64,000 nt of DNA, from NCBI RefSeq assembly GCF_006345805.1, contig NC_043013.1:17112001-17176000 (forward strand), read 5' to 3'. The notes under the pieces were generated by a model that was not told where the DNA came from, did no database searches, and was given only the letters and a program-made list of their open reading frames with translations. This stretch comes from Octopus sinensis (lineage: Eukaryota). Position 1 is the first letter of the stretch. Each line of letters starts with the position of its first letter. This document shows, one piece after another, positions 36,641 to 53,780 of the stretch. A program made the translations under genes and the position numbers.

Positions 36641-37050
36641 ATGTTTGTGTGTCAGTGATACATAGTGATACACACACATAGAGATACACATACAGACACA
36701 GACATACATACATACAGACATATATACATACACAAACATACATACACAAACATACATACACACACATACATTCTACACAAACGTACATACATACACACAC
36801 GTACATACATACACATGCATACATACAGACATGCACATACATACATGCACATACACATACATACATGCACATGCATACTCATACATACAATCATATACAT
36901 ACATACATACTGACATATACAAACATGCACGTACATACATGCACATACATACACATACATACAGACAGACATGCACATATATACAGACATGCACAAAACA
37001 AACATTCACAAACATACATACACATACATGCACATACCTACATGCACATT
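35110..37050. repeat. Degenerate (CA/TA)n microsatellite fields with a SINE B 5' half at 36425-36650
   Basis: cata/caca/tgca mosaics; ggcaccttgggcaagtg...gacggaaactgaaagaagcc at 36474-36560. Confidence 0.9.
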
Positions 37051-38885
37051 TTTTAAATATTGTTTTTTAATAATTTTTTTTACTATTTGTTTTTAATATT
37101 CTTTTTTTAATATTTTATGTAATATTTTTTATATATTTTTGTAATATTTTTTTGTAATATATTTTTGTCATGTTTTTTTGTACTATTTTTTTGTAATATT
37201 TTTTTTAAATATTTTTTTGTAATAATTTTTTTAATATTATATTTTAATATTTGTTTTAATATTTTTAAAAAATATTTTGAAATATTTTTGAAGTAATTTT
37301 TTAAAATATTTCTTAAAATACTATTTTGTATTAATTTTCTTATAAATAATTTCTTTCCATTAATTTTTTTTTATTAATTTTTTAAATCAATTTTTTTAAA
37401 TCAATTTTTTAGAATTAAATTTTTTTTAATTAACATTTTTTAGTTAATTTTTTTAAATTAATTTTTTAATTAATATTTTTAAATAACATTTTTTTGGTAA
37501 TTAATTTTTTAACTTAATTTTTTTAATAACACTTTTTTTAATTATTTTTTTTTCAATAATTTTTTTTCCATAATTTTTTAAACTAATTTTATTTAATTAT
37601 TTTTTTAATTAATTTTTTTAATCAATTTTTTTGAATTAATTTTTTTAAATAATTTTTTTTCAAACATTTTTTTAGTTAATTTTTTTTAATTGATTTTTTG
37701 TTGTAATTGATTTTTTTGATTACTTTTTTAAAAATTAATTTTTATGTTCATTTTGTTTTATTAATTTTTTTTCATTAATTATTTTTAAATAATTTTTTTT
37801 TAATTAATATTTTTTTATTATTTTTCTTTTAATTTTTTTCAATTAATATTTTTTGATTAATTTTTTTCAAATAATTTTTTTTAAATAATTCTTTTTTTAA
37901 ATAATATTTTTTTAATTAATTTTTTTTTAAATTATTTTTTTAGAATTAAACTTTTTCGATTAATCTTTTTTAATTATTTTTTTAATCAACTTTTTTTAAT
38001 TAATATATTTTAATTAAACTTTTTTATTAATAAATTTTTTTTTCGTTAATTTTTTTTAAATAATTAATTTTAATTAATTTCTTTTTAAAACTATTTTAAC
38101 TATTTTAACTATTTATTCTATTTAACTATTTTATTTATTTATTTATAGCTTCTATTTATAGCTTCTATTTATAGCTTCTATTTATTTATTTTTTTTATTT
38201 TTTTTATAGATTCTATTTATAGAATCTGTAAATAGAATCTATAGTTAAATTTTTTTTAATAAATTTTTAAAAATCTTTTTTTAATAATTTTAAAATAATT
38301 CTTTTAATTAATTATTTTTTATTAATTTTTTTTAATTAACATATTTTTAATTAATTTTTGTTGGTAATTAACTTTTTAAATTATTTTTTTAATTATTTTT
38401 TTAAATTAATTTTTTAATTATTTGTTTTTTAAATAATCTTTTTTTCAATATTTTTTTTTGAATTAATTTTTTAAAAAACTTTTTATTATTTTATTTTATT
38501 AATTTTTTAAAAATAATCCTTTTTAATTAATTTTTTTTATTATTTTTTAAATTCATATTTTTTAATTAATTTTTTTTTGTTAATTAATTTTTTTTAATTA
38601 ATTTTTTTTTCAATTAATTTTTTTAATAAATTTATTTATAGATTCTATTTATAGATTCTATTTATAGATTCTATTTTAATAAATTTATTTATAGATTCTA
38701 TTTATAGCTTCTATTTATAGATTCTATTTATAGATTCTATTTATAGATAATATTTATAGATTCTGTTTATAGATTCTATTTATAGATTCTATTTATAGAT
38801 TCTATTTATTTATTTATTTATTCATTTATTTATTTATAGATTCTATTTATAGATTCTGTTTATAGATTCTATTTATAGATTCTAT

Positions 38886-38916
<31 letters not shown>

Positions 38917-39005
38917 CTTATTTATTTATAGATTCTAATTTATAGATTCTAATTTATAGATTCTATTTATAGATTCTATTTATAGATTCTATTTACAGAT
39001 ACTAT

Positions 39006-39036
<31 letters not shown>

Positions 39037-39099
39037 TAGATTCTAATTTATAGATTCTATTTATAGATTCTATTTATAGATTCTATTTATAGATTCTTT

Positions 39100-39134
<35 letters not shown>

Positions 39135-39306
39135 TAGATTCTATTTAGAGATTCTATTTAGAGATTCTATGTATTTATTTATTTATTTATAGCTTCTATT
39201 TATTTATTTATTTATTTTATTTTTTTTTTTATAGATTCTAGTTATAGATTCTATTTATAGATTCTATTTATAGATTCTATTTATAGATTCTATTAATAGA
39301 TTCTAT

Positions 39307-39337
<31 letters not shown>

Positions 39338-39780
39338 TATATTCTATTTATAGAATCTATCAATAGAATCTATAAATAGAATCTATAAATAAATAAATAA
39401 ATAAATAAATAAATAGAATCTATAAATAGAATCTATAAATAAATAAATAAATAAATAAATAGAATCTATAAATAGAATCTATAGATAGAATCTATAAATA
39501 GAATCTATATTTTTAATTATTTTTTAAATTCATATTTTTTAGTTAATTTTTTTTAATTAATTTTTTTTTCAATAATTTTTTTTAATAAATTTATTTATAG
39601 ATTCTATTTATAGATTGTATTTATAGATTCTATTTATAGATGCTATTTATAGATTCTATTTATAGATTCTATTTTAATAAATTTATTTATAGATTCTATT
39701 TATAGATTCTATTTATTTATTTATTTATTTATAGATTCTATTTATAGATTCTGTTTATAGATTCTATTTATAGATTCTAT

Positions 39781-39811
<31 letters not shown>

Positions 39812-39941
39812 TAGATTCTATTTATAGATTCTATTTATAGATTCTATTTATAGATACTATTTATTTATTTATTTATTTATAGATTCTATTTATAGATTCT
39901 ATTTATAGATTCTATTTATATATTCTATTTATAGATTCTTT

Positions 39942-39988
<47 letters not shown>

Positions 39989-40528
39989 TAGATTCTATAT
40001 ATAGATTCTATTTAGAGATTCTATTTATAGATTCTATGTATTTATTTATTTATTTATAGCTTCTATTTATAGCTTCTATTTATAGCTTCTATTTATAGCT
40101 TCTATTTATTTATTTATTTATTTATTTTTTTATAGATTCTATTTATAGAATCTGTAAATAGAATCTATAAATAGAATCTCTAAATAGAATCTATAAATAG
40201 AATCTATAAATAAATAAATAAATAAATAAATAGAATCTATAAATAGAATCTATAAATAGAATCTATAAATAGAATCTATAAATACAATCTATAAATAGAA
40301 TCTATAAATAGAATCTATAAAAAGAAGTTATAAATAGAAGCTATAAATAGAATCTATAAATAGAATCTATAAATATAATATGCTTTTTTTCATTAATTTT
40401 TTTTTAATAAATTTGTTTAAATTAATTTTTTGTTAGAATCTATAAATAGTAGCTATAAATTTATTTATTTATTTATTTATAGCTTCTATTTATAGATTCT
40501 ATTTATAGATTCTATTTATAGATTCTAT

Positions 40529-40563
<35 letters not shown>

Positions 40564-42490
40564 TAGATTCTATTTATAGAATCTATAAATAGAATCTATA
40601 AATAGAATCTATAAATAGAATCTATAAATAGAATCTATAAATAGAATCTATAAATAGAATCTATAAATACAATCTAAAAATAGAATCTATAAATACAATC
40701 TATAAATAGAATCTATAAATAGAATCTATAAATAGTATCTATAAATAAATAAATAAATAAATAGATAAATAAATAGAATCTATAAATAGAAGCTATAAAT
40801 AGAAGCTATAAATAGAAGCTATAAATAAATAAATAAATACATAGAATCTCTAAATAGAATCTATAAATAGAATCTATAAATAGAATCTATAAATAGAATC
40901 TATAAATAGATAAATAAATAAATAAAAAGAATCTATAAATAGAATCTATAAATAGAATCTATAAATAGTATCTATAAATAAATAAATAAATAGATAAATA
41001 AATAGAATCTATAAATAGAAGCTATAAATAGAAGCTATAAATAAATAAATAAATACATAGAATCTCTATATAGAATCTATAAATAGAATCTATAAATAGA
41101 ATCTATAAATAGAATCTATAAATAAATAAATAAATAAATAAATAAAAAGAATCTATAAATAGAATCTATAACTAGAATCTATAAATAGAATCTATAAATA
41201 GAATCTATAAATAGAATCTATAAATAGAATCTATAAATAAATAAATAAATATATAAATAGTATCTATGAATAGAATCTATAAATAGAATCTATAAATAGA
41301 ATCTATAAATAGAATCTATAAATAGTATCTATAAATAGAATCTATAAATAGAATCTATAAATATAATCTATAAATAAATAAATAAATAAATAAATAGAAA
41401 AATAAATAGAATCTATAAATAGAATCTATAAATAGAATCTATAAATAGCATCTATAAATAGAATCTATAAATAGAATCTATAAATAAATTTATTAAAATA
41501 GAATCTATAAATAGAATCTATAAATAGAATCTATAAATAGATTCTATAAATAGCATCTATAAATAGAATCTATAAATGGAATCTATAAATAAATTTATCA
41601 AAATAGAATCTATAAATAGAATCTATAAATAGAATCTATAAATAGAATCTATAAATAGAATCTATAAATAGCATCTATAAATAGAATCTATAAATAGAAT
41701 CTATAAAAAAATTATTGAAAAAAAAATTAATTAAAAAAAATTAATTAACAAAAAAAATTAATTAAAAAATATGAATTTAAAAAATAATAAAAAAAATTAA
41801 TTAAAAAGGATTATTTTTAAAAAATTAATAAAATAAAATAATAAAAAAGTTTTTTAAAAAATTAATTAAAAAAAAATTATTGAAAAAAAGATTATTTAAA
41901 AAACAAATAATTAAAAAATTAATTTAAAAAATAATAAAAAAATTAATAAAAAAAAATTAATTAAAAGAATTATTTTAAAATTATTAAAAAAAGATTTTAA
42001 AAAATTAATTTTTAAAAAAATAAATAAAAATAATTAAAAAGAAAATTAATTGAAAAAAAATTATGAAAAAGAATAATTAAAAAAAATTATGAAAAAAAAT
42101 TATTAAAAAAAATTAATTACGAAAGAAAAATATTAATAAAAAAAAAAAATTAATTAACAAAAAATTATTTAAAAAAATTAATTAAAAAAATTATTTAACC
42201 AAAAATTAATTAAAACAAATTTATTAAAAAAAAATTTATGAAAAAAAAATTAATTAAAAAATATGAATTTAAAAATAATTAATTAAAAATGATTTTTTTA
42301 AAAAAATTAATAAAATAAAATAATAAAAAAGTTTTTTTTTAAATTAATTCAAAAAAAATTATTGAAAAAAAAGATTAATTAAAAAACAAATAATTAAAAA
42401 ATTAATTTTAAAAAATAATTAAAAAAATAATTAAAAAATTAATTACCAAAAAAAATTAATTAAAATATATTAATGAAAAAAAATTAATGA
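37050..42490. repeat. 5.4-kb AT-only foldback array: T-rich left arm, 13-bp (TTTATAGATTCTA)n core in both orientations, A-rich right arm
   Basis: About 38270-38625 is largely the reverse complement of about 41705-42000. Core units switch orientation several times. Confidence 0.9.
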
Positions 42491-45193: not shown

Positions 45194-45425
45194 GGCAGCG
45201 AGCTGGCAGAAACGTTAGCGCGTCGGGCGAAATGCTTAGCGGTATTATGTCTGTCATTACGTCCTGAGTTCAAATTTCGCCGAGGTCGACTTTGCCTTTC
45301 ATCCTTTCGGGGTCGATAAATTAAGTACCAGTTATGCACTGGGGTCGATGTAATTGATTTAGTCCCTTTGTCTGTCCTTGTTTGTCCCCTCTATGTTTAG
45401 CCCCTTGTGGGTAATAAAGAAATAT
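45194..45425 (+). mobile_element. SINE family A, full length with TSD
   Basis: Flanked by tatacagcccc(c)aaa at 45180-45193 and 45425-45439; A- and B-box-like motifs present. Confidence 0.92.
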
Positions 45426-45429
45426 ATAC

Positions 45430-46365
45430 AGCCCCCAAACCAGTGTGATCTCTTACCTCTGAGAAGACCTGGATGGAAAGCACTCAGAGTACAAAACAAA
45501 AAAAGACAATGCATGGATATGTTGCCCGGGAGCTTGAAGAAGACGATAGAATCGACACGAAGCGTAACCCGTCTTGGACATATCTATATCACATCACACT
45601 TTGAAGATTACGCGTTTGCAATCCAGGAACGGGAGATTGTTACAAAGTACCTGGTGAACAAGAGAGACAGTGACGCTCTTGTAATCCCAAGGTATAACTG
45701 CATATGTAGGCTACGTCATGTTTCTGTGGAAGACATCACGCATGTGATTAGCAGCTGTTCTAAAATGTCGTCACGGTACTACCTCCCTATGCGGCACGAT
45801 GTTGTTGCTAAAACAATTTACAATGCCATCCATAAAAAAGACTGTCCGGAAATATACTTAGAAAATCCCTGGTATGGAATACATTCATAAACACCAGCTC
45901 AAGGAATACTGGAGGAATATTCTCATCAAAGCTTCTGTCAAATGTAAACATAACACCCCGGATATTGTTGTTTGGGACAGTGGGGCAAAGGTATGTACCA
46001 TCATAGAGGTCATCTACTCTGCAGATATAAATCAAAGAAAAAGAGGTTATCTATGAACAACTGCTCCGAAACCTTCAGCTTCTGTATCCAGACTGTGAAT
46101 TCATACCAATAATATTTAGAGAACTAGATTTTGTCAGTAAATGCTTAAAGGAGAATCTGGATAAACTGGGATTTTCAGAAAGAGAAATAGACTGGCTAAT
46201 TCGTACATTACAAGTGCAATCTGTGAGTGGAGCAGTAAAAATATGCAAGATTTTTCTCAAGTTCCAAATGTGAATTTGTTTGTGTTAACTACATCCCAAA
46301 GATGGAACCTTGTATCTTGGTTGGAAAGCGGCTTCCTCCTCAGTGGATGATTTATAAGTAAAAAA
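45430..46365 (+). mobile_element. R4/Dong-like non-LTR retrotransposon 3' fragment (zinc knuckle + restriction-like endonuclease), frameshifted
   Basis: AIQE.EI.TKY, CRL....ED.THV.S.C, RHD, KHNTPDIVVWD...IIEV, typical of RLE-encoding elements. Confidence 0.8.
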
Positions 46366-46806: not shown

Positions 46807-47361
46807 CAGAATTACAACTATTTAGCGGTTTGAGTTTGGCTGCTCTTTCTAGTGGGTCGAATGGCCTATCAGGGCCATTCCTTAATATTGTTGAAATTAT
46901 ATATATATAGTTGGTGACTATTTTTCTTTCTCACTTTAGACCGCTGGTGGCGAAAAATTTTTCTTGAATTTTTTGCTACCCTTATATTGATTAATTAATG
47001 ATTTTTTGGCTAATTTTGAAATTATATCAGCAGTTTATATTTGCTGCTGAGAAGATGGCGCGGTGACGGTGGATTTTGAAAATTTAGAGTATATAGACTC
47101 GAGGCGTCGCTGCTTTCGCCTCGTGGATATATATTTTCCTTGGCTTCTTTGCTGACGAGACAGGCTAGATGTAAACAAATTTAATTTAATTTAATTAAAT
47201 TGGTTTACCAAAGTGTCGAAACTATGCATAGTCCAAAGATGATAAGAGTAAATGTTTTTATTTCTCCTTTGGTTTCAGAATTACAACTATTTAGCGGTTT
47301 GAGTTTGGCTGCTCTTTCTAGTGGGTCGAATGGCAATCAGGGCCATTCCTTAATATTGTTG
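46807..47361 (+). mobile_element. Retrozyme-like element, ~1.2 monomers (469-bp period)
   Basis: ~87-bp direct repeat (46807-46893 and 47276-47361), no meaningful ORF, internal hammerhead, ends in (TA)n. Confidence 0.8.
47146..47239 (+). ncRNA. Type I hammerhead ribozyme, intact core, predicted cleavage after GUC at 47233
   Basis: Stem I tctttg/caaaga; CTGACGA (47152-47158); stem II gaca/tgtc with an extra hairpin gtaaac-a-aatttaatt/aattaaatt-g-gtttac; GAAA (47218-47221); palindromic stem III actatgcatagt; then C. Confidence 0.9.
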
Positions 47362-47379
47362 TGTATATATATATATATA

Positions 47380-47582
47380 AATGTGACCGCGTGTGTACCG
47401 TTGGCGATTTTTTTTTCCTCTGTCTTCCCTTCTCTGGATCTTTCCTTCTCCTATGTTTCAGACGAAGAGCTCTGCTCGAAACGTTAAACCCTCCTTCTTT
47501 CCTTCTTTCCTGAGTGTCCAATAATACTATATTTGTTCCACATCCTCGTGTTGTTGTGTTTTTTGTGCTTTCTTGTTTGGAT

Positions 47583-47590
<8 letters not shown>
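47380..47590 (+). mobile_element. Penelope-type terminal-repeat relic with decayed minimal hammerhead
   Basis: cagacgaa-gagc-tct-gctc-gaaacgtt at about 47459-47485. A similar decayed motif at 55699-55725 lies downstream of a GIY-YIG fragment. Confidence 0.5.
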
Positions 47591-53244: not shown

Positions 53245-53248
<4 letters not shown>

Positions 53249-53694
53249 ACAATCAAGGAACGGCCATAATAGGCCATTCACCCACTAGAAATAACAGCCA
53301 AAGCTTCAACCGCAAATAAAAATCAATTCCGTAAACAGGAGAAAAAAGTTCCGACTTGGGCTATTTCTTACTGAAGAATCTGAGGGCCTATGGAAGATTG
53401 GCTTGATTTAATTTAATCAGGTTAGTTTACCATTAAACAGCAGATGAAACGGTGCATCGTATAAGAAATTACAGGGTAAATGTTTTTAAAATTTTCTCCT
53501 GTTTACGGAATTGATTTTTATTTGCGGTTGAAGCTTTGGCTGTTATTTCTAGTGGGTGAATGGCCTATTATGGCCGTTCCTTGATTGTTGATGTTGAACT
53601 TAAAAATGGTCTATGACTATTTAATTTTTTCCCACTAGGCCGCTGGTGGCAAAAAAAAAAATTCTACAAAATTTTTTTTGCCACCCTATATTGA

Positions 53695-53700
<6 letters not shown>
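53245..53700 (+). mobile_element. Second retrozyme-like element, with an inverted terminal segment, inserted in (TA)n
   Basis: Perfect 101-bp inverted repeat (53245-53345 / 53492-53592). Homologous to 46807-47361 (tttggctg.t.tttctagtgggt, ccgctggtggc, tatattgattaatta). Confidence 0.8.
53363..53469 (+). ncRNA. Type I hammerhead ribozyme, intact core, predicted cleavage after GUA at 53461
   Basis: Stem I atttctta/taagaaat; CTGAAGA (53371-53377); stem II atctg/cagat enclosing a G.U-rich hairpin (53391-53432); GAAA (53446-53449); stem III acgg-tgca-tcgt; then A. Confidence 0.88.

Positions 53701-53780
<80 letters not shown>

Follow-up and report, generated by a model that had tools for sequence, protein, structure and literature searches.

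What is the element at positions 46807-47361 of the Octopus sinensis window analysed here, a stretch of 64,000 nucleotides, and how did it come to lie there? The preliminary description had proposed a retrozyme or circular-RNA replicon, with a non-coding monomer and an intact hammerhead ribozyme. We favour, at a probability of roughly 0.8, a 5′-truncated insertion of 1.2 units of a protein-free hammerhead repeat, probably inserted at a TA microsatellite by the reverse transcriptase-endonuclease of an autonomous Penelope-like element (PLE); the RNA that served as template was probably either a circle or a multimer left uncut.

Self-comparison of the window revealed 100% identity between 46807-46865 and 47276-47334 (59 nt), with the direct repeats running on to 46893 and 47361 at an offset of 469 and then 468; the two repeat copies differ by one substitution in 86 compared columns and a 1-nt indel. 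The 87-bp repeats described as lying 469 bp apart are therefore present. They do not bound the unit as terminal repeats or LTRs, however, since the left end is an arbitrary 5′ truncation and the repeats are simply the overlap of a 1.2-unit copy. The insertion (46807-47361, plus strand, 1.19 units) is one-armed, belongs to what we call family A and ends on the right at a fixed 3′ site, site 1. Its single 469-nt unit (46807-47275, plus strand) has 34% GC and is strongly folded, with a z-score of -5.4 that none of 100 shuffles equalled. The predicted fold is branched rather than rod-like and contains all three hairpins previously named, and the claimed lack of coding capacity agrees with the only two ATG-initiated ORFs of at least 20 aa that overlap the unit, of 22 and 87 aa.

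Two hairpins, both also kept in a sister family, B, mark the positions at which copies end. One (46859-46880, second copy 47328-47348, plus strand) lies immediately 5′ of site 1 at 46893 (plus strand; unit position ~87-103, blurred by an internal TA run), which is where the window copy ends at 47361. The other (46946-46980, plus strand) lies immediately 5′ of site 2 at 46995 (plus strand; unit position 185-189), about 100 nt 3′ of site 1. A further, GC-rich hairpin at 47100-47123 (plus strand) precedes the ribozyme. The 3′ end of the insertion adjoins a (TA)n target tract at 47362-47377, a context shared by most arms. We found no target-site duplication at the window copy and saw no empty site for it in contigs of other runs. 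A contig from another run spans the left junction without differences, so the junction is not an assembly artefact. The window copy is an ordinary insertion and, with its single hammerhead, a likely dead end.

A descriptor search confirmed the type I hammerhead, with intact core and all three stems, at 47146-47239 (plus strand). The 6-bp stem I (47146-47151/47234-47239) is followed by CTGACGA (47152-47158), a 4-bp stem II (47159-47162/47214-47217), GAAA (47218-47221), a palindromic helix III (47221-47232) and GUC (47231-47233), and the cut predicted earlier, after 47233, is the correct one for this motif. The descriptor matched the window at two positions (47152 and 53371), matched nothing in each of 20 shuffles and found no hammerhead on the minus strand. 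Because helix II holds a 51-nt AU-rich hairpin insert, the motif is not a compact canonical type I hammerhead. This insert is probably the reason why an Rfam scan of the region left the hammerhead unreported, returning two weak, unrelated matches only. Rfam matched the window copy to no other ribozyme class; across the whole window, the 150 matches listed, out of 251, were all miRNA matches driven by microsatellites.

The hammerhead stretch has a minimum-energy fold 2.2 kcal/mol below the active one. Helix III, with 4 bp and a tetraloop, is able to form inside a single unit; pairing between two palindrome copies is computed at about -16.5 kcal/mol. Between subfamilies, stem I, stem II and helix III vary on both sides, and helix III is self-complementary in all six listed variants. 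Among 314 tagged units, a total in which overlapping loci were counted repeatedly, 246 have all three helices and 34 are without the core. These compensatory changes in three helices, read from sequence, imply selection on the ribozyme fold and are the best evidence for it. The ribozyme of the family is likely to be active. PLE hammerheads likewise have a self-complementary helix III, which allows a dimeric active form, and an enlarged helix II (Cervera and de la Pena 2014, PMC4209133), whereas here helix III is also monomer-capable and no extra base separates the core from helix II.

Two further features of the unit were noted around the ribozyme. GTAAAT at 47248, just 3′ of the hammerhead, may begin a retained intron; a pyrimidine tract that terminates in AG and follows a TGACT, at unit position ~133 (46939 in the first unit), could be its end. 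Both features are kept in families A and B. PLE repeats are known to retain introns of the 5′ UTR. Among the contig joints listed, none is a spliced joint matching this possible intron. At 47054-47063, most other subfamilies read TTTGGCGCG (L010, L066, L118), which resembles an E2F site and could belong to an internal promoter.

The genome searched comprises 2.7 Gb. Queried with the window copy, it gave 2,520 first-look candidates, 40 of which were scored; the near-full-length ones are 84-96% identical. An exact 22-mer of the core had 151 genome matches (control 0), and two relaxed core patterns had 4,111 (control 3) and 5,787 (control 164), family B included. Family B has a unit of ~490 nt, is ~70% identical to family A across the whole unit, and is younger and far more abundant, with best copies 97-99% identical and arrays of at least 19 units. 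A two-armed copy of it lies in the window at 53245-53701 (plus strand), with a minus arm (53245-53345) to site 1, a plus arm to 53701 at site 2, the core at 53371 and (TA)n on both sides. Successive units follow one another directly, head to tail, copies are spread across many chromosomes, and the family recurs in contigs of runs under four organism labels. Tandem intact cores are confined to 4 of 90 family A loci. The genome-wide search suggested for copy number, tandem arrays and ends thus returned thousands of units, tandem arrays, fixed 3′ ends and scattered 5′ ends.

These results bear on the simplest reading of the locus, satellite-like DNA or an assembly artefact in which a local duplication coincides with a chance hammerhead match. 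The region is indeed AT-rich and microsatellite-laden, and some family B arrays are long. Yet the copies occupy many chromosomes and have fixed 3′ ends and inverted arms, and the junction is bridged in another run. With dispersal, the empty shuffles, the covariation of the helices and the bridged junction all against it, we consider this reading excluded, its residual probability being negligible.

The classification as a retrozyme stands, given a type I hammerhead in each head-to-tail, non-coding, low-GC, self-paired unit. Animal non-LTR retrozymes share the hammerhead per low-GC, non-coding, self-paired tandem unit, form dimers to long arrays, have GC below 45-50% and co-occur with PLEs (Cervera and de la Pena 2020, PMC7229834); the mussel retrozyme, of 350-390 bp, is a mollusc example in the same source. 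The class is further characterised by a lack of LTRs, primer-binding site and polypurine tract, by self-cleavage in vitro and by expression as linear and circular RNAs of unit length. The units described here, at 469-491 nt, are slightly above its 150-450 bp range, carry a helix II insert of 51-58 nt instead of a small loop, and occur mostly as dispersed 0.3-3-unit insertions with inverted arms, known from the genome only. We found no existing description in cephalopods in the literature, though supplements and subscription papers may hold one; for the giant squid genome, a count of 235 hammerhead loci is on record (PMC6962438).

How the copies were inserted is visible from their ends. The 3′ ends fall at the two fixed sites ~100 nt apart, each just past a hairpin common to A and B, and the 5′ ends are scattered. 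TA-rich DNA lies 3′ of the end in 47 of 66 family A arms and 36 of 38 family B arms. Two back-to-back arms are present in 22/50 and 21/40 family A loci. Where both ends of a two-armed insertion are fixed, one arm lies at each site in every case: 17/17 and 14/14 in family A, 25/25 and 15/15 in family B, 71/71 in total. The first family A count was made after removing L026, a near-identical duplicate of L027, and merging overlapping loci; the first family B two-arm count excludes two edge-cut loci. Fifteen further two-armed loci have one end elsewhere, and no two-armed locus has both arms at one site. Some supplements aside, we found no description of a one-arm-per-site rule for retrozymes in the literature.

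The longest arms reach 2.7 units in family A and 11.7 in family B and cross intact cut sites, a crossing partly built into the sample as all loci were selected for the hammerhead or for most of the query; in the least biased sample, 6 of 66 family A arms exceed one unit. Since arms cross intact cut sites and exceed the unit, their template was something other than a linear cut monomer. These arms, and the 1.19-unit window copy itself, support the earlier claim that a circular or multimeric RNA gave rise to cDNA exceeding one unit. Cleavage leaves no footprint among the 5′ ends. A pile-up at the cut site in the first family B sample (8/76, two fold-back duplicates included) was absent on replication in fresh samples (1/38 in B, 1/65 in A) and was rejected, and a family A cluster at unit position 408 was put down to faulty alignment around an indel. 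About ten family B 5′ ends lie 1-22 nt past site 2 (unit positions 345-366), a grouping not evident in the fresh sample.

This footprint is of the Penelope type. PLEs show 5′ truncation, partial tandems, an inverted 5′ copy, a one-ended tail, (TA)n targets and a hammerhead in the repeat (Craig 2021, 10.1101/2021.04.23.441226), and the retrozyme shares all of these with the Hydra-clade and other EN+ elements described there, differing in having no ORF and a tail of ~100 nt as against 30-40 nt. The preliminary description had set retrozyme against Penelope repeat. The protein-free retrozyme is upheld, but the opposition fails: the family is an animal non-LTR retrozyme, that is, a non-autonomous PLE, and was very probably mobilised by PLE machinery. 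In Poseidon of the green anole, reverse transcription starts at two internal sites beside a stem-loop, which delimit the tail; targets are AT-rich, and both strands are nicked and extended (Frangieh 2024, PMC11167929). The two internal starts by a stem-loop and the AT-rich targets recur here, although Poseidon is autonomous, belongs to another clade and has adjacent start sites, and the available part of that article contains no description of pairing across two arms.

A candidate source of the enzyme exists in the same genome, namely an autonomous family with 717-aa frames (25,866 first-look candidates) that is young, its copies being 95-98% identical (L160-L162, L067-L095). It carries DKT and CxCX5C motifs, which are Hydra-clade motifs in Craig 2021 (10.1101/2021.04.23.441226); an initial Neptune label was dropped for this reason, and by these motifs the family appears to be a Hydra-type PLE. 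Pfam returned one sub-threshold GIY-YIG match for the family and none for the full ORF. Its Penelope LTRs (pLTRs) likewise end at two positions, here separated by 74 nt, and at least 8 of 29 loci combine one end of each kind. Their hammerhead is a variant in which CCGAAGA replaces CTGAAGA and one additional base precedes GAAA. The genome contains no fewer than five other PLE families with a C-terminal endonuclease, and their pLTR hammerheads are diverse (L225-L244, L190, L198, L234). A Hydra-clade PLE is our best guess for the driver of the retrozyme, at even odds.

One could argue instead that the unit is an ordinary pLTR fragment of an autonomous PLE whose ORF-bearing copies fall outside the sample. 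All insertion hallmarks are those of PLEs. Type I hammerheads whose helix III is palindromic also occur in the autonomous pLTRs of this genome, in some cases with helix II inserts of 39-53 nt like that of the retrozyme. Nevertheless, units stand head to tail without anything between them. Using tblastn with Hydra-type proteins, a query that covers other PLE clades less sensitively, we found no unit joined to an RT-GIY-YIG ORF at any retrozyme locus examined, and ORF scans of L001-L030 and L096-L164 revealed no unit-ORF joint. PLE fragments near eight retrozyme loci proved to be separate insertions, cut off by (TA)n or unrelated DNA, and larger same-strand spacings considered as ORF-bearing partners were long arrays or two insertions. 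Nor did any of 112 loci picked for PLE proteins, representing about six of the larger number of PLE families in this genome, hold a partner sharing unit sequence; across three protein searches and 20 further regions, the best match between unit and PLE was weak and AT-rich (E 3e-4), and the unit resembled none of the pLTRs tested. The distinction from an ordinary pLTR drawn earlier thus holds in the loci examined, and we regard the fragment reading as improbable.

For the non-autonomous PLE that we prefer, the cycle might run as follows. A source locus with at least two units would be transcribed, and the hammerheads would excise a unit, likely aided by helix III pairing between two units. A host ligase, for which closure has been shown in mussel and axolotl retrozymes (PMC7229834), would close the excised unit into a circle. 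A Penelope-type protein would then bind the two hairpins and nick (TA)n DNA. From one DNA end or from both, cDNA synthesis would begin at the two internal sites, pass the hammerhead site and stop at random. The window copy would be a one-armed product from site 1 extending 87 nt beyond one unit. That it yields the ~470-nt circle proposed for it is not supported, since a single hammerhead allows no monomer release by double cleavage.

The step in this cycle most open to an alternative is the circle. The family could be a non-autonomous PLE copied only from linear uncut multimers, its hammerhead an inherited, weak or protein-dependent pLTR motif; we rate this as a serious but less probable account. 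Uncut RNA is the dominant substrate of the anole PLE, and hammerhead mutants were still inserted (PMC11167929); here, no 5′-end peak marks the cut, and family B arrays of at least 19 units could supply multimers. On the other hand, family A has tandem intact cores at only 4 of 90 loci and arms of at most 2.7 units, and compensatory changes in three helices imply selection on the ribozyme. Moreover, 5′ truncation alone would shorten family A every round, so that something must regenerate multi-unit copies. A circular template is modestly favoured over a linear multimeric one because family A has few multi-unit sources (4/90) and yet has arms longer than one unit (6/66).

Other comparisons leave the two templates level. 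Units within a family A locus differ by ~3.5%, and their divergence from the closest other locus is no greater, so a circle is not singled out. In family B arrays, most differences between units are singletons, a pattern in equal agreement with a circle and with a homogeneous multimer. Contig depth over the unit has a 3′-heavy shape that is alike in presumed-RNA runs and in three large runs that are probably DNA. Contig joints at which the sequence goes back 469 were set aside as evidence for a circle, as they occur in both kinds of run and also arise from tandem DNA.

The preliminary description had also spoken of a replicon, and this part is not supported: there is no minus-strand ribozyme and no sign of RNA-to-RNA copying. 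A viroid-like agent replicating from RNA to RNA, with reverse transcription no more than an occasional event, would agree with a small, non-coding, strongly folded unit bearing a ribozyme, and for the mussel retrozymes RNA-to-RNA replication has been proposed (PMC7229834). Here the minus strand lacks a hammerhead, the fold is branched and not rod-like, and thousands of genomic units explain persistence, which together make an RNA replicon most unlikely.

The one-arm-per-site rule invites a more specific proposal for the PLE-driven retrozyme, which we offer tentatively. A dimeric PLE enzyme may copy one RNA circle from both ends of the break, each subunit at its own hairpin-marked site, the two sites ~100 nt apart; the observation of one arm per site in 71/71 insertions would follow from each subunit starting at its own site. 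If true, the family would be a minimal, protein-free substrate exposing the PLE integration mechanism and would prove rolling-circle reverse transcription of an animal circRNA.

That retrozymes originate from PLEs has been published before. Li, Clavereau and Pollet derive retrozymes from PLE pLTRs (2026, 10.64898/2026.07.22.740005), and our conclusion on origin is the same, with the present unit inside their 51-972 bp range. Their basis is co-occurrence in frogs and pLTR similarity, whereas ours is the insertion footprint, similarity to a partner not having been found. The window copy falls outside their 'active' class, which is defined by two consecutive complete hammerheads; 4 of 90 family A loci come within it. 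Of nine predicted frog retrozyme dimers, one cleaved in vitro in the same study. Mobilisation of retrozymes by PLEs has been proposed in the available literature but not mechanistically shown. The family described here has the full PLE footprint, no ORF and a strict one-arm-per-site rule that an autonomous family in this genome also follows. It names two start sites, two hairpins, a target and a candidate enzyme, so that the insertion step can be reconstituted. Its value lies in this footprint, which makes PLE-driven copying of retrozymes directly testable, and not in the window copy itself.

The surroundings of the window copy hold other repeats. A ~210-bp repeat (47378-47590) adjoins its 3′ (TA)n, and at several other loci both ends of this repeat lie beside (TA)n. 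The repeat has a hammerhead-like core at 47460-47490, with CCGACGA in other copies, and its summed contig depth is ~30x that of the retrozyme. On the other side, ~45360-46270 contains the decayed 3′ part of a possibly R4/HERO-like non-LTR retrotransposon, in which a CCHC-like knuckle and a nuclease motif of the PD..D type can be recognised; Pfam gave no match for this remnant. Further upstream, the window is strongly AT-rich at ~37000-42000, where GC falls to 10-13%.
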